Sequence record: NZ_CP094333.1
Length of the DNA: 64,000 nucleotides
Origin: a plasmid
Strand: one strand, 5' to 3'
Below, piece by piece: positions 1,580 through 52,233 of the stretch (positions are counted from its first letter, which is position 1; each line of letters starts with the position of its first letter). A model generated the notes under the pieces. That model was given only the letters and a program-made list of their open reading frames with translations, was not told the DNA's origin and did not search any database. The position numbers and the translations under genes were made by a program.

Positions 1580-2265
1580 AATCAGGTCGCCGGGCCGACC
1601 GGTTGCTCCCCGGAGGGGCGAAAGCCCCTTCTGCCGTCCACTTCTTCGGGGTTTCTCCCCGCAGTGGACCTTTCCGATGGGGCGTCCGTCACCACGTCAC
1701 GGGGCAGCTGTCCGGGGGCGGACGCAAAATTTTTTGCCGGGTTTATGGCTAAAAATTTTGTGGACGGTATATCTTCCCCTGGACTGCTGAAACGGGATGT
1801 GGTTACTCCAGCCCCCGGAAAGTCCACAGCGGGAAACAGGCCGCAGGGGTGGCGGCGGAAGGGTTGACTGCGCCATCAGGCGCAGTGGCCTTACACACCG
1901 TCAGGTGTGCAGGGAGCGCCGTTTCCGGCGCGACAGGGGCGGCGCGACCGGAACGGTCGCTGCAAGCCTGGTTTTTCAGACATCGGACCGTAGCGGCAGC
2001 CCGAAACCGCGCCAGCGGGTTCGGCGGAGACTGGCGGGTGCGCCAGCAGCTGCCTGTCGGAGTCGGGCCTGACGACCGGATGCCGCCAGGCAGCCGGGAG
2101 CCGAAGGTGTCCCCGCCTCCGGAAATCAGAACAACAGAAACGACATAACAGAAAAATGCCTCACACCATGACGGGCAGGAAGGGCAGCGCCGCAGGCGCG
2201 GCCCTCCTGCATTTCAGGCAGGCGTAAGCCTGCCAGGGTTTTCCGGCGGCCTGGCAGGCCATACC
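1580..2265. repeat. leading-region non-coding repeat family 1, copy A (candidate ssDNA promoter/ssi-Frpo-like element)
   Basis: About 90% identical to 13325-13823 and, for its 3' end, to 16250-16345. For example ccgcagtggacctttccgatgggg occurs at about 1655 and about 13365. No conserved ORF; the track ORFs differ between copies. Confidence 0.6.
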
Positions 2266-2788: not shown

Positions 2789-2809
2789 TCCCGAATCCTC
2801 CATAGTCAC

Positions 2810-3145
2810 ATGTTCTGCGACACCGGGCGGTGCCGTGCCTCCATAAAAGCCGGGCGATAAGGCGGGGATGCAGGGGCGCAAGGGAAGCCGCAGCCTGACG
2901 CACACGGCTGACGGGAGTTGCAGGGTGAGGCCGCGAAACCTGAGCGGACGAACGACCGGAAAATCACGGCAGACGGGAAGGAGGGACCGGGTGACCGCAG
3001 CGGCGAAGCGTACCCTTGCATCCCTGCCAGCCCGGCTAAGATGGAGGCACGGCACAGCCCGCACACGACGCTGAGGCCACAGAGCTGAAACCCCACAAGG
3101 CCATGCCCCGCATGGCCGGGTAAAAGCGGAGCCGCCGGCGACTTC
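2810..3145. repeat. leading-region non-coding repeat family 2, copy A (directly 5' of ardA)
   Basis: About 95% identical to 17462-17800 (ccataaaagccgggcga..ggcggggatgcaggggcgcaagggaagccgcagcctgacgcacacggctg...). It abuts the ardA start. Confidence 0.6.
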
Positions 3146-3387
3146 CTTATTCCGGCGAGTGCAGAGGACACGCCGCATGACCTCCAGACCACCCCTGATA
3201 TGAAACGATCATGATCGGCGTGTCCCTGCGTAAAATATACATGCCTGGTTCACCGGAGAATATCTGTGATATCCACAAGTTTTCTGTCGCGCAGCCAGTC
3301 CTGCGCTTCACGCACCACACAACTGTCCGGTTTCACCGCTTTCAGCGATGATGCCAGTCGCTTGATCAACATCACCAGTTCCCGTGT

Positions 3388-3879: not shown

Positions 3880-4562
3880 TGCTCAAGTGCACGTACCTGT
3901 ACCGGTGCACCACGACCGGCCTCACCGGCTTCAAAAATCAGCCGCCAGAGTGGTTCCTCCTGCCAGAAAAACCGGTCAAATGATGACAGTGATGGAAAAC
4001 GCCCGCACCACCCCCAGAAAATCGTTTCCAGATCATGCTCCTCAACAACACCAGACCAGCGGGACAACCAGCTTCCGACCGTGGCGGGAGTATGAAACGC
4101 AAGGTCAATCTGCGCCTGAGCAAAACATGTCTGGTATTCCAGTTCCCGTCGTTCTGCCTCACGTTCCCGCTGGCGGCTGTATTTCTGCTCTGTCAGCGTG
4201 GTTTTCTGACGACGACGCTCACCTTCACGAAAAGGCACGGACGGGAACAGACGGTGCCCCGCATCGGATGGCAGGGGAAGAACACAGACTTCCCCAAAAC
4301 TTTCAATCAGTTTATCCACGGCAGCCAGCCACAGGAGACGGTTGCCATGAAATTCCTCCTTCGTCAGCGCAGGGGCAAAAAAGCGGAGATCGGTCAGCGA
4401 AATCCGGCGACTGCCATTCAGGCAGCGAAAGAAAGCGGTGGCATAAGGCCATGCTGAAAGTGTGCGTCCCTGACGACGACGTTGTTCTGTGACAGCCACC
4501 GCCTGCATGGCGGCCTGTTGTTCTGCGCTGAGGGGGATCAGTGCCCGTGAACGTGCGCTCAT
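3843..4562 (-). CDS. psiA: plasmid SOS inhibition protein PsiA
   Basis: 239 aa, located downstream of psiB, with PsiA-like sequence (…[53 protein letters not shown]…). Confidence 0.85.
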
Positions 4563-4996
4563 GCCTGACCTCCTTCTGCCATCAGGATATGGATGATGTC
4601 GTTAACACTGTATCCCTGCGCATCCAGTGTCGCGGCAAGCGCCAGCGTGTGACTGATCGCGGCAGGCGTGAAGATATGTTGCACCTGAACGACGGCGAAA
4701 GGCTGTCCACCACCATTCACCAGAACCAGCATCCAGAGCTGAGAGACGTCTCCCGGCGAACATAATGCCAGGTGGAAACGTTCGTGGGCTGGCGTGAAAC
4801 GAACCTGGACGGGGAAAAAGCCCCCGAACTCGCTGCCATACTCTCCGTTCATCATCCAGTTAGCCGGTGCGTCCACTTTACGCATCACCTCGTGAGTGAG
4901 ATTACGGCGCATATCGCTTCCCGCAGCACGGATTTCTTCATATTCCTGGGCATTCATGGACTGCAGGGCATTCAGTGTCAGTTCGGTATTCATCAT
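4559..4996 (-). CDS. psiB: plasmid SOS inhibition protein PsiB
   Basis: 145 aa: [28 protein letters not shown]...[36 protein letters not shown]...[16 protein letters not shown] matches PsiB. Confidence 0.9.
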
Positions 4997-5047
4997 CGTA
5001 TTTCTCCCTCTGCCGCCCCGTCTCCGGCGGGGCGGTGTGGTTGTTCA

Positions 5048-7012
5048 TCAGGCGGCATCAGCCAGGTTATCGGCGCGTTCAGTGGCATCCGTCTGTGGAC
5101 GTGGTGAACACATCCAGCCAGGCACCCAGCGGTTGTCTTTCATATGGAACTCTGCATGTTCAGCGGCATCGCCTTTCTTCATCTTCTCTGCGTCCCGTGC
5201 GGCACCGGACAGTCCGGCATCATTCAGGGCTGCGATAATCTGCGGCTTTTTCAGGTGTCCGAAGAAGTTTGCTTTCGTCGGCTGCCACCAGTCGCGCATG
5301 TGAAAACCGATGGCGCTCTCCAGTGAGTCAAGCGGACTGCGTGACGTGCGACCACACTCGCGGGTCTGGACACCGTTAAGGCTGCATGCGGTGCAGAAAC
5401 TGAGCAGGGATAACAGCACCTCCTGACTGAGTGACAGGAACGTCGTCATGTCCCGTGACCATCCCTCCGGTAACAGGGCCGCAAGACGGGCTTTTTCTGC
5501 CATCAGCGCCAGGAATGCGGCACCTTCCTTCCCTGACGGCGCATCGCTGGTCAGCGAATAATGTTTACATTCCAGGCTGATTTGTGCTGGTTTACTGTAC
5601 GCTCCGCTGTCAAACACATTCAGGCAGAGCGTCCATGCCAGCAGTGCCAGAGATTTGTCCGGTTGCTGCATCAGTGCTGCCTGGACTGCCAGCGTGCGTT
5701 CGGAAGACATTTTCGTCAGCAACGGCAGACTGATTTCCTCCACTGACGCTTTCTCCTGCACCTGTTCCGTGCGGTCAGCGTCATCAGTCGCGTCATCTTC
5801 ACTGCGCAACTGCACACCACGCTGGACACACACATTACCGTAACGCCAGGACACCACCACGCCACTTCCGGCACGCATCTCCGGCGTCCACGCCCTGACC
5901 TTCGCCATGCAGCGCATCAGCTTCATTTCTGCTTCCAGCAGGTCGGATTCCTCACACTGGTTTTCCAGCGCGTCGTAACGCGTCATCAGTTCGTTCAGGC
6001 GTTCTTCTTCTGCCTCCGTCAGCACCGCTTCCGGCTCCGGCAGACAGCGGTATGTTCCGGCATCCTCACGGCACTCACCGACAGGCTCCATGCGTCCGGC
6101 GCACCATTCCCAGCCTTCGGCTTCCCGAAGGTGTTCAGCGACAGCCTGGAGTTTTTCCAGCAGGGCAGCATCGAGCGCCACGCGGTCGACATAACCGTCC
6201 CCGTCATCGCTGAACAAATCAGTACGCAGTTCGTCAGGTGAGAAAGCATCAGCCCCCACGAAGCGGAATTTACTGTTACCTGCCACCGCCACTTCACTTT
6301 CGGTCACCAGACGACGAATGGTCTGTACTTCCGGTTTACCGCCCCATCCCGACTGGCAGGCGGCTTCAAACACCTGCACCTGACGCGCGGTGTCGTTCTC
6401 CAGCGCCAGCGCCTGACAGTGCTCTGTGGTGATGCGGTCTTCTGCCAGCGCATCGAGGATGACAGGCGCAAGGTCTGCCAGTTTCAGCATTCGCTGAACG
6501 TGGCGGGGCGAATAGCCCAGCAAATCACCGATTTGTGCAGGCGTTTTGCCTTCCTGCGCCATCGCACGGAATCCGGCAATCTGTTCGGCAGGGTGCATAT
6601 CCCGACGATGACCGTTTTCAGTCATTGATGCAGCCGTCGCCAGCTCCTGCGGAATAACCTTCACGCGTACAGGCCAGTCAGCCGGAATGATGCCACGCTC
6701 TGCCAGCATGTTGAGTGCAGCCAGTCGGCGACCACCTGCGGCGACACCGTAACGGTCACCAGGCAGGGTATGCACGACCAGATTCTGCAGCAGTCCGACG
6801 CCCTTAATGGACTCCGCCAGTTCGCTGACGGACTCCGCAGAATACGGCACCGTGCGCACATTCAGCGGTGATTTAATCAGCGAGGCCAGCGGCACGCTCA
6901 CTTCCTCCGTCTGCGCCAGCAGGGCAGACAGGACAGTTTCCTGCGTTTTTACAGATTTACGGCTTGCTTTGCGGGTGGTTTCTGGTTCACACTTCGTTAC
7001 AGGCATAATCAT
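5048..7012 (-). CDS. ParB-like nuclease domain protein of plasmid leading regions (654 aa)
   Basis: The N-terminal ParB/Spo0J nuclease motif (…VPLASLIKSPLNVRTVPYSAESVSELAESIKGVGLLQNLVVH…GRRRLAALNMLAE…) and the roughly 650-aa size are typical of the F/ColIb leading-region ParB-like protein. Confidence 0.85.
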   Translation of the reverse strand: MIMPVTKCEPETTRKASRKSVKTQETVLSALLAQTEEVSVPLASLIKSPLNVRTVPYSAESVSELAESIKGVGLLQNLVVHTLPGDRYGVAAGGRRLAALNMLAERGIIPADWPVRVKVIPQELATAASMTENGHRRDMHPAEQIAGFRAMAQEGKTPAQIGDLLGYSPRHVQRMLKLADLAPVILDALAEDRITTEHCQALALENDTARQVQVFEAACQSGWGGKPEVQTIRRLVTESEVAVAGNSKFRFVGADAFSPDELRTDLFSDDGDGYVDRVALDAALLEKLQAVAEHLREAEGWEWCAGRMEPVGECREDAGTYRCLPEPEAVLTEAEEERLNELMTRYDALENQCEESDLLEAEMKLMRCMAKVRAWTPEMRAGSGVVVSWRYGNVCVQRGVQLRSEDDATDDADRTEQVQEKASVEEISLPLLTKMSSERTLAVQAALMQQPDKSLALLAWTLCLNVFDSGAYSKPAQISLECKHYSLTSDAPSGKEGAAFLALMAEKARLAALLPEGWSRDMTTFLSLSQEVLLSLLSFCTACSLNGVQTRECGRTSRSPLDSLESAIGFHMRDWWQPTKANFFGHLKKPQIIAALNDAGLSGAARDAEKMKKGDAAEHAEFHMKDNRWVPGWMCSPRPQTDATERADNLADAA

Positions 7013-7844: not shown

Positions 7845-7990
7845 GTAGGGTAGGGTACGTGTGGTCTTTCAAGATAAATGGCGAATATGTCCTGCTTATC
7901 TTGAGTTAGATCACCGTTACCCCCCCTCCGAACCGTACGTGCACCTTTCAATGCATACGGCTCTCCATTGCTAGCTTATTGGGGATAAAC

Positions 7991-9892
7991 TCATTTAGCA
8001 GAATCCCCACTTGAGACAGGTGGTTGCAGGAGTATTCTTCCCTTTTCCTGTCTCAGATCGGGTAGTTTTCCGCTATGTAACTTGTCGTGGCAACTTGCGC
8101 ACAAAATCATCGTTTTCCGGCGGCGTGCGATCATCATTAGTTGCCACAGGCTGGGTTTATATCCGGCCTTACGACCTTTCTTCAGGTCTTTTAGCTTTCT
8201 GACATGATGTACTTCGCAGCGCCCAGTCTTCGCACAATACTCGCAGATCCTTGCCCCTAATCGACGCATGATCTCTGTTGTGCGGGTTGTGATATGTGCG
8301 GTTCTCGGTTCCGTATCGACAATCGTTGTTCGGTTGCGATTGACATGTTTGAGTTTGAAAACCTCAATCTTTCGGGATCCATTTTTGGCCTGAACGGTAA
8401 TAGCCAGATCTCCATTATTTTGCCGTAGCGATTTGGCGACTTTATTCACTGAACTACGTCGTTTATTCGCTAGGGTCTTAAAAAGGCTTATTTGCCATAT
8501 GAAATATAATTTTGATAATTTATATTTCATGTCCAGCGCCAGACTGTAGTAGTTCGCCAATCCGCGCATTTCCGCGTTGAAAGTCAGAACAATTTCAGCT
8601 TCACTGAGATTTTGTAGACTTGAACGATGTACAGCCTTCACATTCTCATAACAGCCATATTTCTTTTGGTGACAAAATTTAGCGGCTATATTGTCAGGAA
8701 CGAAGAGCTGCACAATTCCTGTGGTGGATCTCCGGAGAGCGTGCCGCCCTTGCATTTTCTGCTTCAGCAATTTCTTTGCATCTGCCTGTCTGATTTCATA
8801 GCCTAAAAAATTAACTCCTTCTGAGATATGGCGGATCCTGGTCTTTGCTTCATTAACTTCCAATCCCAGTGAAGTAGTAATAAAGTTTCTGACCTGTCTT
8901 GATATATGTTCAGCATCTTTCTTCGAGCCGATGACACCAATTACGAAGTCATCAGCATATCGAACATAGTACATACGCCTGAAGTTTGGATCGTTCATGA
9001 CCTGAGATGGTATAGAACGTTTTTCTTCAAGCAGTCGTTCAATTTCTTTCTTTATGGCTTCTTTTTCTGATTCAGAATCAGTTGCCATACCGTCTACTTT
9101 CTTTCGTAGTTTATGAATCTTATGGGCCAGCCTGTTCATATCTGGATTCGCTCTTCGTTTTGTACCGCTTGTATATGCAGGAATTAAGTTCTGTTCTACA
9201 AAACGGTCCAGTTTGTCGAGGTATATATTTGCCAGTAAGGGAGAAATTATCCCACCTTGTGGCGTGCCAGAATATGAGCGATGGTATTTCCAATTGTCCA
9301 CATATCCTGCCTTCAGCCACTGTTCGATTAATTTCAGGAAATTCTTATCCTTAATTTTCTCTGCCAGTGTATTCAGCAATAGTTTGTGGGGGATATTGTC
9401 AAAGAAACCTTTGATATCAACATCCACGATCCATTTAACTCCGTTCCAGACTGGACGAATAGATCTGAGCGCAGTTTCACACGAACGTTTTGGTCTGAAT
9501 CCATGAGAGTGTTCAGAGAATACTGGTTCATAAACCCTTTCCAGAATAATTCTTGCTACTTCTTGCGCCAGTTTATCGTCTCCACCTGGAATCCCCAGCG
9601 GTCTGGTTTTTCCGTCCTTTTTTGGGATCTGAACTCTGCGTACAGGTTTCGCTACGTATTCTCTACTCCGCAATGTTTTTGCCAGCTTCTCTGCTCTTTC
9701 GATAGAGAAGCCATCAATGGTATCTGTTGATACACCTTGAGTCAGTGCACCTGCATTGGCCCGTATATTCACGTAGGCTTGCAGCCACAGTCCGGGCTCA
9801 CACGCAATTTTGTATAGATTACGTACTGGATACCCTTTTTTTGAAGCATCCTCAATTCCATCTAATCTTTTCTCAAGTTCATCAGGCAGCAT
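7991..9892 (-). CDS. group II intron-encoded protein (reverse transcriptase/maturase/HNH endonuclease, 633 aa)
   Basis: RT motifs (…RPLGIPGGDDKLAQEV…, YVRYADDFVIGV), a maturase X region, and a C-terminal Zn-finger/HNH region (CEYCAKTGRCEVHHVRKLKDLKK…CASCHDKLHSG). Confidence 0.9.
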   Translation of the reverse strand: MLPDELEKRLDGIEDASKKGYPVRNLYKIACEPGLWLQAYVNIRANAGALTQGVSTDTIDGFSIERAEKLAKTLRSREYVAKPVRRVQIPKKDGKTRPLGIPGGDDKLAQEVARIILERVYEPVFSEHSHGFRPKRSCETALRSIRPVWNGVKWIVDVDIKGFFDNIPHKLLLNTLAEKIKDKNFLKLIEQWLKAGYVDNWKYHRSYSGTPQGGIISPLLANIYLDKLDRFVEQNLIPAYTSGTKRRANPDMNRLAHKIHKLRKKVDGMATDSESEKEAIKKEIERLLEEKRSIPSQVMNDPNFRRMYYVRYADDFVIGVIGSKKDAEHISRQVRNFITTSLGLEVNEAKTRIRHISEGVNFLGYEIRQADAKKLLKQKMQGRHALRRSTTGIVQLFVPDNIAAKFCHQKKYGCYENVKAVHRSSLQNLSEAEIVLTFNAEMRGLANYYSLALDMKYKLSKLYFIWQISLFKTLANKRRSSVNKVAKSLRQNNGDLAITVQAKNGSRKIEVFKLKHVNRNRTTIVDTEPRTAHITTRTTEIMRRLGARICEYCAKTGRCEVHHVRKLKDLKKGRKAGYKPSLWQLMMIARRRKTMILCASCHDKLHSGKLPDLRQEKGRILLQPPVSSGDSAK

Positions 9893-10385
9893 TGGCTAAC
9901 CCTCCTCTTAGAGATTGATGTATCTAACAACTGTCTCCCTTCCCCGCAGCACTGTGAGGCTTTCATCTCCCTTCCGGTTGATTTATACCTTTGCTGCTTC
10001 CGTATAATGCGGACTGCCGTAGCCCATTACAGGCCGACCTTGAGTACTATGGAGACTCCGCTACCATGCTGGGTATAAATCCAGTTTAGGTAGTCCCGTA
10101 GTTTCACGGTGTGGAGATGCGATGTACTTAGGATGTCTTTCGATCGTTTAACTATTTCATCAATAGCTGGCCCGTTAGAGTGGTCACAATCAACGTAGGG
10201 CGGATTTCTTGTGCTATTACGGGAATAACGCTTCAATCGTTCTGCGTTATTGGTTTCCTGTTTCCCACATAGATCTCGACTTCAACAAACCCAGTTTATC
10301 CATATACATCTTGCATTGAGTGGTGATACTTAGTAACCGGCTCATTTAAACCGTCTGGTCTGTTTCCTCCGGCTCTACAAAAATA

Positions 10386-11063
10386 ATGTCCATCATTTTT
10401 AATGGACACTATCGTATGAAACACCGGACCTGGATCACTGAAGCTTTACGTCTTCACTTTGAAGAACATTTACCCCGGGTTGTGGCCGGGCGTCGCCTGG
10501 GTGTACCAAAATCAACAGTTTGTAGTATGTTCGTGCGCTTTCGGAGAGCTGGCCTTTCGTGGCCTTTGCCCGCAGGCATGTCGGAGCAGGAACTTGATGC
10601 CTGCCTTTACGGACAATTTTCCACGGTACCAGTCGTACGTCCTGAAAGCACCGTTATATCCGAAGCCCCCATGGTAAAAAAACGTCCCCGGCGGCCCAAC
10701 TTCCCTTATGAGTTTAAAATCGCCTTAGTGGAGCAGTCACTGCAGCCCGGAGCCTGTGTGGCGCAGATCGCCCGGGAAAACGGAATCAACGATAACCTGC
10801 TCTTCAACTGGCGCCATCAATACCGGAAAGGTGGCCTGCTGCCTTCCGGAAAAAATATGCCGGCACTGCTTCCCGTGACGTTAACGCCGGAGCCGGATAA
10901 TAAAATCCCGGCCCCCGCACAGGAACCAGAGCAGATAAATACACCGTCCGACAGTCTGTGTTGTGAGCTGGTTCTGCCGGCCGGAACTCTCAGGCTTAAA
11001 GGTAAACTGACGCCGGCGTTATTACAGACACTTATCCGCGAAATAAAAGGGAGCAGCCACTGA
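10386..11063 (+). CDS. tnpA: IS66-family accessory protein TnpA (orf1)
   Basis: The C-terminal half (…KKRPRRPNFPYEFKIALVEQSLQPGACVAQIARENGINDNLLFNWRHQYRKGG…) is IS66 orf1-like. The N-terminal part has an HTH resembling IS21 IstA (AGLSWPLPAGMSEQELDACLY). The true start is probably MKHRTW at 10416. Confidence 0.7.
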   Translation: MSIIFNGHYRMKHRTWITEALRLHFEEHLPRVVAGRRLGVPKSTVCSMFVRFRRAGLSWPLPAGMSEQELDACLYGQFSTVPVVRPESTVISEAPMVKKRPRRPNFPYEFKIALVEQSLQPGACVAQIARENGINDNLLFNWRHQYRKGGLLPSGKNMPALLPVTLTPEPDNKIPAPAQEPEQINTPSDSLCCELVLPAGTLRLKGKLTPALLQTLIREIKGSSH

Positions 11064-11410
11064 TGATATCTCTCCCTGCAGGTTCGCGTATCTGGCTGGT
11101 TGCAGGTATCACCGATATGCGAAATGGCTTTAACGGCCTGGCATCAAAAGTTCAGAACGTCCTGAAGGATGACCCGTTCTCCGGACACCTGTTCATCTTC
11201 CGCGGACGCCGGGGTGACCAGATAAAAGTGTTGTGGGCTGACAGTGACGGACTGTGCCTCTTCACCAAACGCCTGGAGCGGGGCCGCTTCGTCTGGCCAG
11301 TCACCCGTGACGGCAAGGTGCACCTTACTCCGGCTCAGTTATCCATGCTTCTTGAAGGTATCAACTGGAAGCACCCGAAACGAACGGAACGCGCTGGAAT
11401 CCGCATATAA
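11063..11410 (+). CDS. tnpB: IS66-family TnpB (orf2, 115 aa)
   Basis: MISLPAGSRIWLVAGITDMRNGFNGLASKVQNVLKDDPFSGHLFIFRGRRGDQIKVLWADSDGLCLFTKRLERGRFVWP is the highly conserved IS66 orf2. Confidence 0.9.
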   Translation: MISLPAGSRIWLVAGITDMRNGFNGLASKVQNVLKDDPFSGHLFIFRGRRGDQIKVLWADSDGLCLFTKRLERGRFVWPVTRDGKVHLTPAQLSMLLEGINWKHPKRTERAGIRI

Positions 11411-11429
11411 CCCGTTGTAAAGTGAGGAT

Positions 11430-13001
11430 ATGGACACCTCACTTGCTCATGAGAACGCCCGCCTGCGGGCACTGTTGCAGACGCAACAGGACACCATCCG
11501 CCAGATGGCTGAATACAACCGCCTGCTCTCACAGCGGGTGGCGGCTTATGCTTCCGAAATCAACCGGCTGAAGGCGCTGGTTGCGAAACTGCAACGTATG
11601 CAGTTCGGTAAAAGCTCAGAAAAACTTCGTGCAAAAACCGAACGGCAGATACAGGAAGCACAGGAGCGAATCAGCGCACTTCAGGAAGAAATGGCGGAAA
11701 CGCTGGGTGAGCAATATGACCCGGTACTGCCATCCGCCCTGCGCCAGTCTTCAGCCCGTAAACCGTTACCGGCCTCACTTCCCCGTGAAACCCGGGTTAT
11801 CCGGCCGGAAGAGGAATGCTGTCCTGCCTGTGGTGGTGAACTCAGTTCTCTGGGATGTGATGTGTCAGAGCAACTGGAGCTTATCAGCAGCGCCTTTAAG
11901 GTTATCGAAACACAACGTCCGAAACAGGCCTGTTGCCGGTGCGACCATATCGTGCAGGCACCAGTACCTTCAAAACCCATTGCACGCAGTTATGCCGGAG
12001 CGGGGCTTCTGGCCCATGTTGTCACCGGGAAATATGCAGACCATCTGCCGTTATACCGCCAGTCAGAAATATACCGTCGTCAGGGAGTGGAGCTGAGCCG
12101 TGCCACACTGGGGCGCTGGACAGGTGCTGTTGCTGAACTGCTGGAGCCGCTGTATGACGTCCTGCGCCAGTATGTGCTGATGCCCGGTAAAGTCCATGCT
12201 GATGATATCCCCGTCCCGGTCCAGGAGCCGGGCAGCGGTAAAACCCGGACAGCCCGGCTGTGGGTCTACGTCCGTGATGACCGTAACGCCGGTTCACAGA
12301 TGCCCCCGGCGGTCTGGTTCGCGTACAGTCCGGACCGGAAAGGTATCCATCCACAAAATCACCTGGCCGGTTACAGCGGTGTGCTTCAGGCCGATGCTTA
12401 CGGTGGTTACCGGGCGTTATACGAATCCGGCAGAATAACGGAAGCCGCGTGTATGGCTCATGCCCGGAGAAAAATCCACGATGTGCATGCAAGAGCGCCC
12501 ACCTACATCACCACGGAAGCCCTGCAGCGTATCGGTGAACTGTATGCCATCGAGGCAGAGGTCCGGGGCTGTTCAGCAGAACAGCGTCTGGCGGCAAGAA
12601 AAGCCAGAGCCGCGCCACTGATGCAGTCACTGTATGACTGGATACAGCAACAGATGAAAACACTGTCGCGTCACTCAGATACGGCAAAAGCGTTCGCATA
12701 CCTGCTGAAACAGTGGGATGCACTGAACGTGTACTGCAGTAATGGCTGGGTGGAAATCGACAACAACATCGCAGAGAACGCCTTACGGGGAGTGGCCGTA
12801 GGCCGGAAAAACTGGATGTTCGCGGGTTCCGACAGCGGTGGTGAACATGCGGCGGTGTTGTACTCGCTGATCGGCACATGCCGTCTGAACAATGTGGAGC
12901 CAGAAAAGTGGCTGCGTTACGTCATTGAACATATCCAGGACTGGCCGGCAAACCGGGTACGCGATCTGTTGCCCTGGAAAGTTGATCTGAGCTCTCAGTA
13001 A
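11430..13001 (+). CDS. tnpC: IS66-family transposase TnpC (orf3, 523 aa)
   Basis: Leucine-zipper N-terminus, a CxxC…CxxC zinc finger (CPACGGEL…CCRCDH), and the DDE core typical of IS66 TnpC. Confidence 0.9.
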
Positions 13002-13212
13002 ATATCAATACGGTTCTGACGAGTCGCTTACGATACTTATAACGATTTCCGTATTCACCACCCTTTTCTGTGGATGCTATGTTCACCTCTCCTTTTCAGG
13101 ATCTCCGAGCCTGTTACCAAGCGAGGCTAACCACAGTATGCAATGGCTATACCACTAAGCCATGTTGCTTTTCATGCAACACTCCATAAAACACCGCGCT
13201 TCAACGGCGCAC

Positions 13213-13251
13213 CCCGACGAGGATGACCTTGTTGATACCACGTGCACTCAT
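13213..13251 (-). CDS. ssb: SSB exon 1 (codons 1-13: MSARGINKVILVG)
   Basis: The reverse complement of 13213-13251 is atgagtgcacgtggtatcaacaaggtcatcctcgtcggg, which translates to MSARGINKVILVG. It is followed immediately by gtgcgcc, a group II intron 5' consensus. Joined to exon 2 it gives ...[26 protein letters not shown], identical in pattern to F SSB. Confidence 0.7.
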
Positions 13252-13324
13252 AAGAACCTCCTGACTGAAAGATGTGAGATAAACCGGATACCGGCGACGG
13301 GACGTTCATGTGCCCCTTCAGAGG

Positions 13325-13823
13325 AGCGAAAGCTCCTCCTGCCGTCCACTTCACAGGGGTTTCTCCCCGCAGTGGACCTTTCCGATGGGGGCCCGTTTAC
13401 CGCCTCACGGGACAGCTGCCCGGGGGCGGACGCAAAATTTTTAGCCGGGTTCATGGCTAAAAATTTTGTGGCCGGTGCATCTCACCCTGGACAGATGGAA
13501 CGGGAGGGGGTTACGTCTGCCCCCCGGAAAGTCCACAGCGGGAAACAGGCCGCAGGGGTGGCGGCAGGAGGGAAGACTGCTGCGCCATCAGGCGCAGTTT
13601 CCTCACACACCGTCAGGTGTGCAGGGAGCGCAGGTCACGGCGCGACAGGGGCGGCGCGACCGGAACGGTCGCTGCAAGCCGGGTTTTCACGCATCGGACC
13701 GTAGCGGCAGCCCGAAACCGCGCCAGCGGGTTCGGCGGAGACTGGCGGGTGCGCCAGCAGCTGCCTGTCGGAGTCGGGCCTGACGACCGGATGCCGCCAG
13801 GCAGCCGGGAGCCGAAGTGGGCG
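13325..13823. repeat. leading-region repeat family 1, copy B (5' part), directly 5' of ssb exon 1. It is interrupted at 13823/13824 by group II intron 2.
   Basis: Aligns with 1620-2117 of copy A. The alignment breaks after gcagccgggagccgaag, where GTGCGAC begins. Confidence 0.6.
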
Positions 13824-16170
13824 GTGCGACAGGAAGTCGCTTAACGTATTGTTTTACATTGATAAAACCAGCTATCCCATTAGCTGTAGCCTACCGGGAC
13901 AGGCGCTGCCGGCAACGGCGGGGTCTGAAGCTCCCGGGACAACGAGAGCCGGGCGTCAGCCCGGGTAAAGCCCCGTGAGGGGCTTTACCTTGCTGCAAGC
14001 ATCATGTGGCAGGAGAGCAAGGCTGGTCAGAAGGGTTAACACATGTGAACTGTTGATAAACACCGTTATCGGCAACAGGCCAAAGATGCTGACAGGCCTG
14101 AACCAAAAGGTACGGGGTCCGGTTGCTACCTCGCGCACAGGGAGCACATGGGCGCAGAGACCCCCGGTGAAGAGACAGAACCCGCCCTGACCCTCTGTAT
14201 GTTAAGCGGAACCTGGTAAACCCGTATCGCTGCCTTACAGGCAGGTGAACCGTAAGGAACACTGTAGGCGGTGCGGGCAGAGGAGGACGGAAAAAGCAAA
14301 TGCCCGGTTGTAATGACCGGGATACGGGGCAGGTTCCCCGACGCGAAAGCGGGCAGACTTCCGTCTGGTCTTTAATTGCATGAAAAGCTGTAAAGCAGTC
14401 AAAAGGATATCAGCGAGATGAATACACACATCAGTGTGTCCACGATACCCCACCCGACAGGCTGGCACACCATAGACTGGAAAGCATGCCATGCCCGGGT
14501 GCGAAAGCTACAGTTACGGATTGCAAAGGCAACCCGACAGCAACAATGGCGGCAGGTCAGAGAACTACAGCGCATCCTCACCCGCTCATTCTCCGGCAAA
14601 GCCGTGGCTGTCAGGCGTGTAACTGAAAATACCGGTAAAAGGACACCCGGTATTGACGGAAAAATATGGCACACACCGAAGGAGAAATGGGAAGGAATAT
14701 GCAGCCTGAATCTGTGTGGTTACAGGCCACAGCCACTACGGCGAATACATATCCCAAAATCAAACGGCAAAACGCGACCGCTGGGCATACCCACAATGAG
14801 GGACCGGGCCATGCAGGCACTGTGGCTGCTGGCTCTGGAACCCGTATCCGAGACCACTGCTGACCATAACAGCTATGGTTTCAGACCAATGCGCAGCACG
14901 CATGACGCCATTGAGTCCATTTTTCTGCGGATGAGCCAGAAAGTATCGCCCAAATGGATACTGGAGGGCGATATTAAAGGGTGTTTCGATAACATCAGCC
15001 ATGACTGGCTGCTTTCCCATATTCCGATGGACAGGAGACTGCTTAAAAAATGGTTGAAAGCAGGTTACATGGAAAGAGGCGTGTTTAACCATACGAACAG
15101 CGGGACACCGCAGGGAGGCATCATATCCCCTGTTCTCGCCAACATGGCTCTGGACGGACTGGAGAAGGAACTGATGCAAACGTTCAGGAAAAGTGGTTAT
15201 CACAGTGCAAAGCACCAGGTGAATTATGTGAGATATGCTGATGATTTCATCTGTTCAGGCAGCTCCCGTGAATTGCTGGAAAATGAGGTCAGACCACTGA
15301 TTGCAGCTTTCATGCGCGAACGAGGGCTGGAACTGTCGGAAGAAAAAACCGCGATTACACATATAGATAAAGGCTTCGACTTTTTAGGGCAGAACGTCAG
15401 GAAGTACAACGGTAAAATGCTGATTAAACCGTCGAAGAAAAACCTGAAGAACTTCCTCTGTAAAGTCAGAGAAATAATTAAACGCAATCCGACGCTCCCG
15501 GCATGGAAACTGATAGGCCAGCTAAACCCGGTAATCCGGGGATGGGCTACCTATCACCGACACGTCGTGGCGAAAGAAACATTTAATTATGTCGACACCC
15601 AAATCTGGCGAGCTATATGGCGATGGTGTGTAAGAAGGCACCCCCGAAAAGGATTGCGGTGGATCGCCGGACGATACTTCTCCTTTGAAGGCAGGCGCTG
15701 GATCTTTAAAGCCATAACCCCGGAAGGGAAAATTCTGACTCTCTTCCGGGCAATGGAAACACCGATAAAGCGCCATATAAAAATCAAAGGCGAAGCAACA
15801 CCATACACCCCCGGAATGGAAATCTACTTTGAACGTCGTCTGGATCTAATCTGGAAAGGCAAATCAAAGAAGATGAAGACAGTAGTTCAACTCTGGAAGA
15901 GGCAGGGGAAACACTGTCCGCAGTGCGGACAACCCATAACCAACCAGACCGGATGGAATATACATCACCGGATCAGGAAAGTTATGGGCGGCAGTGACGA
16001 ACTGACCAATCTCGAGTTGTTACATCCGAACTGCCACCGACAGTTACACAGCAGGGAAGCCGGTGCTCACCGAAAGCACTTATAAAGGCTTGAGCGGAGT
16101 GCGGGGAAACTCGCACGCTCCGTTCTTAGGGGGCGGCGGCGCAGCAATGTGCCGCTGCTACCCGACCAAT
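13824..16170 (+). mobile_element. group II intron 2 (different lineage from intron 1) inserted in repeat family 1 copy B
   Basis: 5' GTGCGAC at 13824. IEP 14418-16085. Domain V GAGCGGAGTGCGGGGAAACTCGCACGCTCCGTTC at 16093-16126. The 3' boundary is approximate (16160-16250); repeat homology resumes near 16250. Confidence 0.7.
14418..16085 (+). CDS. group II intron-encoded reverse transcriptase/maturase with HNH endonuclease domain (555 aa)
   Basis: RT blocks (…RPLGIPTMRDRAMQ…, YVRYADDFICSG), domain X, and a C-terminal CPQCG…HHRIRKVMGGSDELTNLELLHPNCHRQLHS. Confidence 0.9.
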   Translation: MNTHISVSTIPHPTGWHTIDWKACHARVRKLQLRIAKATRQQQWRQVRELQRILTRSFSGKAVAVRRVTENTGKRTPGIDGKIWHTPKEKWEGICSLNLCGYRPQPLRRIHIPKSNGKTRPLGIPTMRDRAMQALWLLALEPVSETTADHNSYGFRPMRSTHDAIESIFLRMSQKVSPKWILEGDIKGCFDNISHDWLLSHIPMDRRLLKKWLKAGYMERGVFNHTNSGTPQGGIISPVLANMALDGLEKELMQTFRKSGYHSAKHQVNYVRYADDFICSGSSRELLENEVRPLIAAFMRERGLELSEEKTAITHIDKGFDFLGQNVRKYNGKMLIKPSKKNLKNFLCKVREIIKRNPTLPAWKLIGQLNPVIRGWATYHRHVVAKETFNYVDTQIWRAIWRWCVRRHPRKGLRWIAGRYFSFEGRRWIFKAITPEGKILTLFRAMETPIKRHIKIKGEATPYTPGMEIYFERRLDLIWKGKSKKMKTVVQLWKRQGKHCPQCGQPITNQTGWNIHHRIRKVMGGSDELTNLELLHPNCHRQLHSREAGAHRKHL

Positions 16171-16249
16171 AAAAGACAGCCAGAAACGGTGACAGTGTCA
16201 CGGAATATCACACCTGTTCCCTGCATACAGCCATACACTACCTTCTGAC

Positions 16250-16345
16250 CGGAAAGCCGGGCCGGCAGCGCCGCAGGCGCTGCACCCCGCATTTCCGGCA
16301 GGCGTCAGCCTGCCAGGGGTTTTCGCGCGGGCTGACAGGCGGCCT
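16250..16345. repeat. leading-region repeat family 1, copy B (3' part, downstream of intron 2)
   Basis: gggccggcagcgccgcaggcgctgcaccccgcatttccggcaggcgtcagcctgccagggg matches 2175-2260 of copy A. Confidence 0.5.
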
Positions 16346-16362
16346 CCACCGCCTGCCCTGTA

Positions 16363-16554
16363 TCACCTGTTTCTGCTGCCCTGAAGGATATAGTGACCAC
16401 CGAGGAAAACCGCCTGCTGATTCGCCACAAAATCGCAGATTTCATCAACAATCTGCGCAGTGGTGAGCGGTTTCTGCCCCATTTCACGACGCCGCGCATT
16501 AATCACGGCTTTGTAATTGCGCAGAATTTCGCGGGTTTCTGTGCTGATATTCAT
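16363..16554 (-). CDS. hypothetical small protein (63 aa), translationally coupled to the upstream DUF1380-like gene
   Basis: ATGA start/stop overlap at 16551-16554. Confidence 0.35.
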   Translation of the reverse strand: MNISTETREILRNYKAVINARRREMGQKPLTTAQIVDEICDFVANQQAVFLGGHYILQGSRNR

Positions 16555-17461: not shown

Positions 17462-17800
17462 GTTCACATATTCCGCGACACCGGGCGGTGCCGTGCCTCC
17501 ATAAAAGCCGGGCGAACAGGCGGGGATGCAGGGGCGCAAGGGAAGCCGCAGCCTGACGCACACGGCTGGCGGGAGTTGCAGGGTGAGGCCGCGAAACCTG
17601 AGCGGGCGAACGACCGGAAAATCACGGCAGACGGGAAGGAGGGACCGGGTGACCGCAGCGGCGAAGCGTACCCTTGCATCAACGCCAGCCCGGCTAAGAT
17701 GGAGGCACGGCACAGCCCGCACACGGCGCTGAGGCCACATAACTGAAAACCCATAAGGCCATGCCCGCATGGCCGGGTAAAGCGGAGCCGGCGGCGACGT
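17462..17800. repeat. leading-region repeat family 2, copy B (directly 5' of klcA)
   Basis: About 95% identical to 2810-3145. The track ORFs 17411-17857 and 17464-17754 are translations of this repeat. Confidence 0.6.
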
Positions 17801-42080: not shown

Positions 42081-42578
42081 TTAGCCGTTTCGACGCGCAT
42101 AAACGGAGTGGGTGTACGGAATTACAGCTTGAATGGTTTCGGTTGAGACAAGCTCGAATTCTGTTTCGTTGAGCATTGGGAAGAAGGCGTCACCCTCGAA
42201 GGTTTGATGTACCTCAGATAGAAACACGCCGTGGGCGTGAGGTAGTGCCAGAGTGTATATCTCAGCTCCGCCCGCGACGTAGAGTTCATTGCCGAGTTCG
42301 GATGCCAAAGCGATAGCGTGCGACAGCGTTGAAACAACTACGCAGCCAGTGGCGCGGTAGTTAGCTTGGCGTGAGATTACCAATGTGTGACGGTTCGGTA
42401 GAGGCTTGCCGATAGACTCAAAGGTCTTTCGCCCCATGACAACGACTTTTCCCTCAGTGAGTCTGCGAAAAATCTTCTGCTCACCCGGAATTTTCCAGGG
42501 GATATTAGGACCATTGCCAATAACCCGATTGGCTCCCATCGCAGCAACGAGATAAATGCGTACTGATTCCGAGTTCAT
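42081..42578 (-). CDS. dfrA12: trimethoprim-resistant dihydrofolate reductase DfrA12 (165 aa)
   Basis: MNSESVRIYLVAAMGANRVIGNGPNIPWKIPGEQKIFRRLTEGKVVVMGRKTFESIG…. Confidence 0.9.
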   Translation of the reverse strand: MNSESVRIYLVAAMGANRVIGNGPNIPWKIPGEQKIFRRLTEGKVVVMGRKTFESIGKPLPNRHTLVISRQANYRATGCVVVSTLSHAIALASELGNELYVAGGAEIYTLALPHAHGVFLSEVHQTFEGDAFFPMLNETEFELVSTETIQAVIPYTHSVYARRNG

Positions 42579-42722
42579 ATGGCTAACTTTGTTTTAGGGC
42601 GACTGCCCTGCTGCGTAACATCGTTGCTGCTCCATAACATCAAACATCGACCCACGGCGTAACGCGCTTGCTGCTTGGATGCCCGAGGCATAGACTGTAC
42701 AAAAAAACAGTCATAACAAGCC

Positions 42723-50048: not shown

Positions 50049-51125
50049 CTAGTGCGGTGGCGGGGCAGCCAGCGTCAGTTCAAGCTGACGCAACTCCCTG
50101 ATGGCCAGTCGCTTCAGATGGTCATCGGAACAAAAATAGGCTTCATCCGGCGGCAGACGCTTCCTGAGATACTCTGCCATCTCATGAATCTGCTGGTCGG
50201 CAGGCAGTTTCTTCAGGCGTCTGGCGCGCTTACTGGCTGCCGCTTTTGCACGACGGTGTTTCAGTGCATCCTGGCTGCGCTGCAGATACCAGCGTTTTCT
50301 GGCCGCATGTACGGAGATATCTTCATCCTCACGCAGAACACCTTCCCGAATGAGCTGCTGGCGGATTTCACTTTCACGCAGTCGTTTCTGCTGCTGTTCG
50401 TGAAGTTTTACCATGTCGACGCCCAGCATCTGCCAGCCAGCCGGTGTTATCCAGACGTAACGTGGCAGACGCTGGCGGGTTTCACGGTCCCACAGGGTTT
50501 CCTCTGAAACACCCAGCACACCAAAACGTACCTGTTCGGCCAGCAAACGGGAAAGGCGGGAGACCGTCACTTCCAGTTCCGGAATAACCTTCCCCTTGCT
50601 GTCTTTCGGGCTGATTTCTCTGGCCAGACGGGAAACACTCATGCCTACGGTATGTGTGCCCGCATCACTGAAGCTGACCAGAACCGGCCAGATGGCATCG
50701 AGGAGGCGTTGTTTTTCCGGACGGAAAGCATATTTGCGACCGGCATACATTCGTTTCTGCACGTAAAAAGGATGCAGAGACATGTGCATGCGCAGGCTCT
50801 GCTCGCCGGTCACCGGGTCCTTTTTCACCAGACGGTTGTAGGCGTGCCCGAGCTGCCCGCTCAGCGCCTTATAGCGCTCAGGACGATACCAGGACGGATT
50901 TTCGCATTTGGGTTTGGTGGAGTGCTCACCGCGACGACGCTTCGTGCGCTTCCTTTCCGGTTCAACCAGGAAAGTGGTCGCCCTTCCCGCTTCATAGTCT
51001 TCCCAGAAACGGATCTGCTCTTCGGGTGCTAACTGACTCCAGTGTACTGCGTTATATGGAGTATTCTTCAGACCTGCCACAAGCTGTCGCTTATGGCGGA
51101 GCGATTGTGCCGTGTATTTATACAC
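50049..51125 (-). CDS. repZ: RepA1-family replication initiator RepZ (358 aa)
   Basis: MYKYTAQSLRHKRQLVAGLKNTPYNAVHWSQLAPEEQIRFWEDYEAGR… matches the IncI/IncFII RepA1 family. Confidence 0.85.
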   Translation of the reverse strand: MYKYTAQSLRHKRQLVAGLKNTPYNAVHWSQLAPEEQIRFWEDYEAGRATTFLVEPERKRTKRRRGEHSTKPKCENPSWYRPERYKALSGQLGHAYNRLVKKDPVTGEQSLRMHMSLHPFYVQKRMYAGRKYAFRPEKQRLLDAIWPVLVSFSDAGTHTVGMSVSRLAREISPKDSKGKVIPELEVTVSRLSRLLAEQVRFGVLGVSEETLWDRETRQRLPRYVWITPAGWQMLGVDMVKLHEQQQKRLRESEIRQQLIREGVLREDEDISVHAARKRWYLQRSQDALKHRRAKAAASKRARRLKKLPADQQIHEMAEYLRKRLPPDEAYFCSDDHLKRLAIRELRQLELTLAAPPPH

Positions 51126-51184
51126 TGCACAGGGTTGAATCTCTGGTACGGTTTCATTATACTTTACCCGTATTCTGTGAGGCC

Positions 51185-51235
51185 CCCACTATCTTTCGTC
51201 GTTCCGCCAAGTTCGTAAGAAAGATAGTGGGGGTT
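51185..51235 (+). ncRNA. inc: Inc RNA (antisense copy-number control RNA) stem-loop with conserved 5'-UUGGCG-3' loop
   Basis: Perfect inverted repeat cccccactatcttt…aaagatagtggggg with loop cgtcgttccgccaagttcgta, whose complement contains TTGGCG. Located in the repZ leader (repY) region. Confidence 0.55.
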
Positions 51236-52233
51236 TTCCTTTTATGGCTTCCGGAACATCTTCAGTCTTCTGACTTACTGCCCGTACATGCCATCTCTCC
51301 TGAATGCCTTATGGCGCATTCTGCCGTCCGGCTTTCGCCGGTTTGCTCCACAGAGTGCCACTCTCTGCACAGCTAATAACAGCCGAAATATACCCGCTTT
51401 ACGTTAATTTGAAAAGCATTACAACGATCTCTTCTCTTCCAGTGCCTCCTCACTGATACCTCTAATGAGTTAATCTTGACCTGCGTCAAAAAAATAAAAT
51501 CTATTTTTAAAAGCAGATTTTTCTGCTTTAGATCCTTCTTTTGGATTAAAAGATCGACTTTTGTTCTACTCACGATCATTTATCTTACAACCGATCCACC
51601 TAACAGAATAATATTCTGTTTTAAGACAATTAAACGATCTAAAAAACCTTTAAAAAATCATTTTGTAGATCATTTGATCGTAAATAGAATGATTTTTAGA
51701 TAATAAAACCATTTGTTACACAGCCCGCCAATTGTGTAACAACAGCCTCTACAAGAGCATATTTGTTCATATGTTCGTCAGAACTGCGGATTGTCTGGAC
51801 GAGGGTCAGACACCGTTTCGTGCATATGGACCAGCATGTTCGAACGCCACAAAGCAGAAGCATCATGCCTGGATCGCTTCGGCGCGGAGCGTTAAGTTTT
51901 GACGCTTTTTTGTATGTTTTTTAAGCGGTTAGTTGACTCGGTACGTTATACTAAGTACCCTTTACTGGTCACAGGCAAAACTGTGATCGGGCGTAGGAAC
52001 CCGCGTAGTCATCGTCGGCGCAGAAGTTAATTTCTTCATTTGGCGTCGTTTTTTGCCATACCATAAAGACAGGAACTTGTATTTCTTGTCGTCATCTATG
52101 GTAGCTCAGGCGGGGCAGGCATTAGCCTGGCCGGTTTCCGATGACGCCGGTATTCCTACCCCCGTCTGGGCTATCACCAATGAGCGTAGGAACTCGGTGA
52201 TAGCGTTTTTAGTTGTCATCGGAGACCTTTGCT

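Follow-up and report, generated by a model that had tools for sequence, protein, structure and literature searches.

A probably mobile IIB1 group II intron at the edge of the ssi3 repeat upstream of ssb on an IncI-complex plasmid

The locus and the boundaries of the intron

We analysed a stretch of 64,000 nucleotides (nt) from the plasmid record NZ_CP094333.1, called the window in the following. It comprises the leading region and the backbone of an IncI-complex plasmid; the records that match it best are IncI-gamma/K1 plasmids, for example pCTXM14_020022. A first-pass annotation had proposed that a group II intron (here, intron 2) lies at 13824-16170, inside one copy (B) of a non-coding repeat upstream of ssb, a gene whose neighbourhood holds another group II intron (intron 1). 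By its sequence, the element at 13824-16166 is indeed a real and intact group II intron of an ordinary kind, already annotated as ltrA in RefSeq. The proposed 5' end was right (GTGCGAC from 13824), but the 3' end, ...CTACCCGAC, lies at 16166, that is 4 nt earlier than proposed, as the match to the empty site indicates.

To define the boundaries, we spliced 13700-13823 to 16167-16420 and searched PLSDB with the product. The joined flanks match many IncI-type plasmids (e.g. NC_017675) with 100% identity over all 378 nt. These orthologous empty sites give the insertion point ...AGCCGAAGTGGGCG/CAATAAAAG (here and below, a slash marks the insertion point) or, with a further part of the flanks, ...GGGAGCCGAAGTGGGCG/CAATAAAAGACAGCC. 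No base is common to both junctions and therefore the boundary is unambiguous. The insertion is precise, it lies within the non-coding repeat upstream of ssb and, as had been stated, the intron and ssb have opposite orientations (ssb begins at 13252, minus strand).

It had also been claimed that the intron interrupts copy B exactly where the homology to copy A ends, and that an alignment of the two copies would define the empty site. The insertion does lie within the repeat, but the homology ends 7 nt upstream of it. The identity between copies A and B is 83-93% as far as ...GCCGAAG (13816); they then differ over 6-7 nt, which are the region of intron-binding site (IBS) 1, and realign clearly only from 16286 (position 2206 in copy A). 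The homology thus resumes downstream of the intron, but the paralogues diverge around the site, and orthologues are needed to define it.

The intron starts with GTGCG and ends with CCCGAC, in keeping with the rule 5' GUGYG / 3' AY. Besides the 5' part of domain I, Rfam recognises domains V and VI (RF00029) at 16090-16166 on the plus strand, with 60.1 bits compared with a gathering score of 40. Domain V, which is the string quoted in the first-pass annotation, has 34 nt, the AGC triad and a GNRA loop, and domain VI has a bulged branch A. Copies of the 2343 nt are identical among IncI, IncF and chromosomal contexts.

Intron-encoded protein and lineage

The intron encodes a protein of 555 amino acids with the Pfam domains RVT_N (7e-33), RVT_1 (1e-41), GIIM (3e-24) and HNH (1e-10), and with a YADD motif (15234-15245). 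It is thus the protein of the intron, as had been assumed, and not that of a non-intron retroelement. The closest relative with a solved structure is 6ME0_C, the reverse transcriptase (RT) of the T. elongatus IIB intron (E = 1e-178, residues 12-553); LtrA follows at 6e-46 and the IIC RTs at 1e-41 to 1e-36. The T. elongatus intron, seen by cryo-EM during reverse splicing into DNA (PDB 6ME0/6MEC), differs from ours in that it is cyanobacterial and thermophilic and has unrelated targets.

From these comparisons we assign the intron to subgroup IIB1 and to the chloroplast-like (CL) lineage, with an endonuclease (En) domain; the lineage assignment is based on E-values to solved RTs and on the 56% identity to EcI5 rather than on a tree. 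Two hallmarks of IIB1 introns are present. The exon-binding site (EBS) 2a stands two nt 5' of EBS2, is followed by an A and faces position -14 (TTA-TCGGC at 14066-14073), and IBS3, which in this subgroup stands at +1 in place of a delta-delta' contact with the exon, is C in all sites examined.

The well-known intron EcI5 (E.c.I5), a IIB1/CL1 intron of pO157 which is used as a targetron, has much in common with intron 2: an RF02012 domain I, the order of the domains, the EBS2a/EBS2/EBS1 architecture at homologous positions, an RT/maturase/HNH protein and C at +1. EcI5 likewise occupies a leading region, that of an F-type plasmid. We confirmed the EcI5 locus at 4363-6768 of a pO157-type plasmid, where the exon has the published C-18, C-17, A-15, A-14 and T+5. 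However, intron 2 is not EcI5: the proteins are only about 56% identical and the targets differ, with G-17, G-15 and A+5 here against a published target of C-18, C-17, A-15, A-14 and T+5. EcI5 has entered codon 7 of a DUF1281 gene (MPNWCSN/RMYF...) in sense orientation, at CCAAACTGGTGCTCGAAT/CGTAT, whereas the intron of the window lies in non-coding DNA and antisense to the neighbouring operon. We also rejected Kl.pn.I5 of plasmid pK245, since the annotated intron protein of pK245 (WP_004178082.1, about 495 amino acids) is a different one; this was judged by the annotation of bases 1-50000 of the 98264-bp record and not by sequence comparison. No name of the Zimmerly database could be assigned to the intron from the searchable literature.

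Target recognition

EBS2 (UCGGC) is complementary to GCCGA at -13 to -9, and the U of EBS2a (14067) to A-14; at the window site both pairings are perfect. The EBS2a rule that we applied here comes from PMC8643678, where the EBS2a-IBS2a pair was visualised in the T. elongatus structure. EBS1 (GCGCAC) is a perfect 6-bp complement of the exon GTGCGC at the IncF-type site. When the intron is aligned with EcI5 and with a relative from E. albertii, the EBS1 and EBS2 loops prove to be homologous, and in both relatives they are complementary to the respective exon (EBS2 CCCTG/CAGGG and EBS1 GCTTCC/GGAAGC in the E. albertii relative; EBS2 ACCAG/CTGGT and EBS1 GUUUG/CGAAU in EcI5). Both relatives also have C at +1. 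The E. albertii relative (pESA135_1, intron at about 4399-6747) encodes a protein that is 60% identical, and it is found beside a Frpo-type hairpin, at a position equivalent to about 13700 of the window and in the same orientation.

Among the six sites that we compared, A-14 is present in all six and GCCGA in five, with GCCGG at rfbK. Judging from these complementarities, the choice of the site would be explained by EBS/IBS pairing to a conserved 14-nt motif. At least 1010 PLSDB records have the 5' junction in common with the window, but only 131 have its 3' flank, which places the recognition in the 5' exon plus position +1.

Independent insertion sites and covariation of EBS1

Apart from the IncI-type site, we find the intron at an IncF/IncFII(K)-type site and in three chromosomal genes (Table 1). 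In IncF/IncFII(K) plasmids the occupied repeat does not precede ssb directly, but an operon of a hypothetical gene, a DUF3560 gene and a methyltransferase gene. The copy in the gntP-family gene belongs to a lineage of the intron with 98.5% identity, in which the entire EBS1 hairpin is changed to TGCTTCTC[T GGACAC]GAGAGCA. A search with this variant hairpin found it in about ten PLSDB records, compared with about 1000 for the main type. On p746 (NC_014234, 3727-6068) the GGACAC variant occupies a copy-A-type repeat at ...GCCGAAGGTGTCC/, where GTGTCC/C is the exact complement of its EBS1. The paralogous copy-A site of the window (GCCGAAGGTGTCC/C, 2100-2113) is unoccupied. To judge by this covariation, each allele of EBS1 goes with a different paralogous repeat, and this would be why the intron sits where copies A and B cease to be alike.

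The p746 intron is followed, at 6069-6424, by the beginning of a second copy, head-to-tail and with no exon between them (...CCCGAC/GTGCGAC...), which ends after nt 357. Beyond this tandem copy, the p746 sequence jumps to the methylase/DUF1281 region, so that most of the leading region is deleted. We also looked at the copy in CP082329 (98.3% identity) as a possible variant; it turned out to lie in an ordinary IncF-type site, and its low identity looks like assembly indels.

Table 1. Features of the intron, of its surroundings and of its other insertion sites (positions are those of the window; slashes mark insertion points)
Feature	Position	Strand	Basis or remarks
Group II intron, complete; assigned to subgroup IIB1, chloroplast-like RT lineage	13824..16166	+	2343 nt; exact empty site in orthologous plasmids and Rfam
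Domain I, 5' part	13868..14017	+	Rfam RF02012 (group-II-D1D4-7), 119.7 bits, E = 1e-24
EBS2a (T 14067) and EBS2 (TCGGC 14069-14073)	14067..14073	+	Homologous to EBS2 of EcI5 and of the E. albertii relative
EBS1 hairpin TGCTACCT[C GCGCAC]AGGGAGCA	14124..14146	+	Delta C 14132; EBS1 14133-14138
Intron-encoded protein, 555 amino acids	14418..16085	+	RT, maturase, HNH endonuclease; RefSeq WP_012372796.1
Domain V	16092..16125	+	RF00029 alignment; 34 nt, GAAA loop
Domain VI	16129..16166	+	RF00029 alignment; bulged branch A at 16160
5' exon target motif	13810..13823	+	IBS2a A (-14), IBS2 GCCGA (-13..-9), IBS1 region GTGGGCG (-7..-1)
IBS3, first base of the 3' exon, C	16167..16167	+	C at +1 in each site examined
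IncF/IncFII(K)-type site, AGCCGAAG GTGCGC/C
rfbK site, chromosomal, AGCCGGTG GTGCGT/C
Zn-metallopeptidase gene site, chromosomal, AGCCGAAA GTTCGT/C
gntP-family permease gene site, chromosomal, AGCCGAGG GTGCCT/C
Repeat copy A (paralogous)	1613..2259	+	Repeat comparison; unoccupied site at 2100-2113
Repeat copy B	13321-13823 and 16167 onward		Repeat comparison
ssi3/Frpo-type element	13260..13808	+ (transferred strand)	Fold as single-stranded DNA and partial Frpo homology
First 13 codons of ssb, severed by intron 1	13213..13252	-	Comparison with intact ssb in record L002

Distribution and published mobility

The full intron is present in 982 PLSDB records, of which about half are from Escherichia and about half from Klebsiella, and its identity is at least 99% in 1015 of 1067 records. 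In E. coli, we found it in 344 of 5426 complete genomes, at 564 places on plasmids and 49 on chromosomes. Plasmid papers mention the intron in passing, in pGUE-NDM-type and F33 backbones.

Benz et al. 2023 (PMC10104558) report the order yffB (disrupted), LtrA homologue, ssi3 and ssb on plasmid p1ESBL. In their evolution experiment with IncI-gamma plasmids, new junctions of an LtrA-type intron appeared at this position of p15ESBL in two replicate populations, and the host of these populations carried an intron-bearing IncF plasmid. The intron of that study resembles ours in the gene order, in being divergent from ssb and in its LtrA homologue, which was modelled on 6ME0_C; the paper gives no intron boundaries, class, EBS/IBS analysis or survey. 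It is very probably the same element as the intron of the window, as judged by gene order and position and not by a direct comparison of sequences.

The repeat and the transferred strand

In IncI plasmids, the repeat that precedes ssb has been named ssi3 and is the counterpart of Frpo2 of the F plasmid (PMC10104558). As single-stranded DNA (ssDNA), the plus strand from 13253 to 13823 has a predicted fold of -167.9 kcal/mol (z = -9.8), with a hairpin of about 440 nt at 13260-13700 (apex 13443-13470), a second one at 13699-13778 and a small one at 13787-13808. The last 15 nt, which hold the IBS motif, are essentially unpaired in this fold. Compared with Frpo1 and Frpo2 of the F plasmid, the repeat shows 92% identity over 72 nt and 78% over 83 nt. 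It thus combines Frpo homology, a long and stable hairpin on the transferred strand and a position upstream of the leading-region gene ssb; that such elements have ssDNA-dependent promoter activity is taken from the literature on homologues (PMC10104558). The intron occupies the distal end of the repeat, some 120 nt past the promoter hairpin, and leaves the hairpin uninterrupted. Thousands of IncF and IncI-complex plasmids have repeats of the ssi3/Frpo type in front of operons of the leading region.

We did not find the target motif of the intron in Frpo1/2 of the F plasmid (8171-8481 and 13559-13631), where only parts of the window's hairpin are found. The F plasmid is without the conserved 120-nt distal module (13699-13823 of the window) that carries the target. 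A hypothetical open reading frame, yffB (WP_001434357.1), is annotated in RefSeq and in R64 across the empty site (2936-3250, minus strand, in comparison record L002); as it lies inside the non-coding ssi repeat, it is probably not a real gene.

In a collinear record, nikB, nikA and oriT (an inverted repeat of the R64 type) are found at lower coordinates; the leading genes ardA, psiA/B, a parB-like gene and ssb follow on the minus strand. An IncP-type nick motif (YATCCTGY) was not found near nikA, and oriT was placed by the inverted repeat instead. The DNA is transferred 5' to 3', beginning with the leading region, whose genes are transcribed from the strand that is transferred (PMC11541004). 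Together with the position of oriT and the strand of the leading genes, this makes the plus strand the transferred one. The sense strand of the intron and the IBS motif are both on it.

Other introns of the leading region

Intron 1 is of the mitochondrial-like type; it covers 7845-13212 on the minus strand, encodes a protein of 633 amino acids (7991-9892) and lies precisely between codons 13 and 14 of ssb, in sense orientation. The junction of ssb and intron 1 occurs in at least 122 PLSDB records. To call the two introns unrelated, as the first-pass annotation did, is fair at the level of lineages: their proteins are alike over the RT core only (34% identity) and have different domains (Intron_maturas2 and an AI2M-type HNH in intron 1; RVT_N, GIIM and HNH in intron 2). 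Intron 1 is itself split by an element of the IS66 family (10333-13031, with the 8-bp target duplication GATACTTA), so that ssb is probably inactive here.

We examined four introns in leading regions and found that the sense strand is the transferred one in two of them and the other strand in the remaining two. The latter are EcI5 and intron 1, which have this orientation because they lie inside genes, where splicing requires it. Mobile introns on conjugative elements that spread by conjugation are known from Ll.LtrB and RmInt1. Unlike the intron of the window, Ll.LtrB is a IIA intron of the mitochondrial-like lineage that lies in sense orientation in a relaxase gene, and RmInt1 has no En domain and targets an insertion sequence.

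Probable retrohoming and its alternatives

Taken together, it is very likely that 13824-16166 is an intact and currently mobile IIB1 group II intron that arrived by site-specific retrohoming. We directly observed the anatomy of the intron and its exact empty site, the complementarity, the covariation of EBS1 and IBS1 across lineages and the independent ectopic insertions, and from them we infer the biochemical steps and the En-dependent priming. The excised lariat, with the RT/maturase/HNH protein, would recognise the motif on the plus strand by RNA-DNA pairing (EBS2a U with A-14, EBS2 UCGGC with GCCGA at -13 to -9, EBS1 with -6 to -1 and EBS3 with C+1) and would then reverse-splice at this motif. 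The HNH domain would most probably nick the opposite strand, and the nick would prime the synthesis of cDNA. Since the motif lies beyond the hairpin and in non-coding DNA, and since the intron and the operon are antisense to each other, such an insertion would be tolerated and the intron would ride with its plasmids.

Several points weigh against this reading. In the canonical register, the window exon TGGGCG forms one of six pairs with EBS1 GCGCAC, and the intron of the window is identical in sequence to copies in the perfectly matched IncF-type site; the simple pairing model falls short of fully explaining the window site. In addition, EBS3, the partner of IBS3, could not be located in the intron, and no sigma-70-like promoter was found upstream of the intron on the plus strand. 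If the register is shifted by one nucleotide, so that C14132 faces G-1, six of seven pairs are formed (C-G, G-C, C-G, G/G, C-G, A-T, C-G; 14132-14138 against 13817-13823) and C+1 is kept. Work on the ai5-gamma ribozyme reportedly indicated that cleavage takes place where the EBS1-IBS1 helix ends, and this could leave room for a shift of one nucleotide. In PLSDB, 131 IncI-type sites are filled and at least 1690 are empty (about 7%), compared with roughly 870 filled and at least 2026 empty sites of the IncF type (about 30%); the counts are a rough measure of occupancy, on which clonal plasmids weigh. The lower occupancy of the IncI-type sites fits a weaker site.

One alternative concerns the route rather than the mobility. 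In a recipient (or donor) cell that makes intron particles, the intron could reverse-splice into the transferred strand as it enters, with the discontinuous synthesis of the complementary strand as the source of cDNA primers and with ssi/Frpo neighbourhoods as preferred targets. The sense strand and the IBS motif are indeed on the transferred strand; the motif is largely unpaired in the predicted fold and follows directly, on the 3' side, the strongly folded hairpins; and both the EBS1 variant and the E. albertii relative are found beside ssi/Frpo hairpins in the same orientation. The lagging-type complementary synthesis, as a potential primer for cDNA, fits as well, and conjugative entry is reported to stimulate the homing of RmInt1. 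Finally, the new insertions in PMC10104558 arose in a conjugating population with a resident intron-bearing IncF plasmid. On the other hand, the intron has kept an intact HNH domain, which is usually missing from introns that have specialised in ssDNA or replication-fork targets; the same intron is also found in chromosomal genes; in EcI5 and intron 1, which lie in leading regions too, the sense strand is the one that is not transferred; and the orientation alone is a 50:50 observation, in which homologous sites do not count as independent events. We therefore regard this route as possible, but rather unlikely. Sequence-specific pairing to a very widespread, dispensable and multi-copy motif is sufficient as an explanation, because the HNH domain has been kept and chromosomal genes have been entered as well. 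The first-pass annotation had suggested that the ssb neighbourhood, exposed as ssDNA and transferred early, is a preferred target. The sites of both introns do recur (in at least 1010 and at least 122 records), but the case for a preference comes down to orientation and co-location; such a preference is possible, but not supported.

A broader version of this idea, which we likewise consider rather unlikely, is that there is a small family of IIB1 introns (this intron, the EBS1 variant and the E. albertii relative) specialised on ssi/Frpo modules of enterobacterial conjugative plasmids. Their EBS1 alleles would be matched to different paralogous repeats and the motif of all of them would lie on the transferred strand; they would spread during conjugation by reverse splicing into the incoming single strand, the synthesis of the complementary strand would prime the cDNA, and the register shift would permit the use of the IncI ssi3 site.

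It is very improbable that the intron is an immobile fossil which, after a single insertion, was passed on only with descending plasmids and through homologous recombination of the repeats that flank it. The near identity of the copies would agree with such a history, as would the long and recombinogenic repeats and the poor pairing of the window site with EBS1. However, precise insertions are found in at least three plasmid flank contexts and in three unrelated chromosomal genes, with IBS2 and IBS1 matching each time; the reading frame is intact, with YADD and HNH motifs; the filled IncI site is flanked by IncI-type sequence on both sides, which recombination with an IncF donor would not give; and de novo junctions have been reported experimentally (PMC10104558).

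The hairpin-directed targeting of class C introns, which the first-pass annotation had brought up, can be dismissed with near certainty: a small G+C-rich hairpin (13787-13808) does end 15 nt upstream of the insertion point, but this nearest hairpin has no T-run as a terminator- or attC-like stem-loop recognised instead of a sequence might, the protein has an HNH (En) domain, the RNA has an EBS2 and an EBS2a that match the exon, the chromosomal sites have a sequence motif in common, and the nearest solved RT is that of the T. elongatus IIB intron and not of a IIC intron.

Relevance

As an object the intron is routine: RefSeq annotates it as ltrA, about 1000 sequenced conjugative plasmids of enterobacteria carry it, and its place beside ssi3 and ssb has been published. 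Our analysis adds the exact boundaries, the homing motif with its recognition code, the covariation of EBS1 with paralogous repeats and the register shift of one nucleotide. The intron marks resistance plasmids of clinical importance (IncF, IncFII(K) and IncI) and probably moves among them. It could therefore serve as an epidemiological marker, and it is also a possible source of repeats for recombination. If its orientation did reflect homing into incoming ssDNA, it would offer a natural system for the study of intron invasion coupled to conjugation.

Further features of the window

A second family of direct repeats, separate from the ssi repeats, is found at 2806-3105 and 17464-17763 (300 nt, 95% identity). 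Further Rfam matches are a class 1 integron attI/aminoglycoside leader at 42555-42633 (minus strand), the repZ pseudoknot at 51093-51241 (minus strand) and a C4 antisense RNA at 52094-52181 (plus strand).

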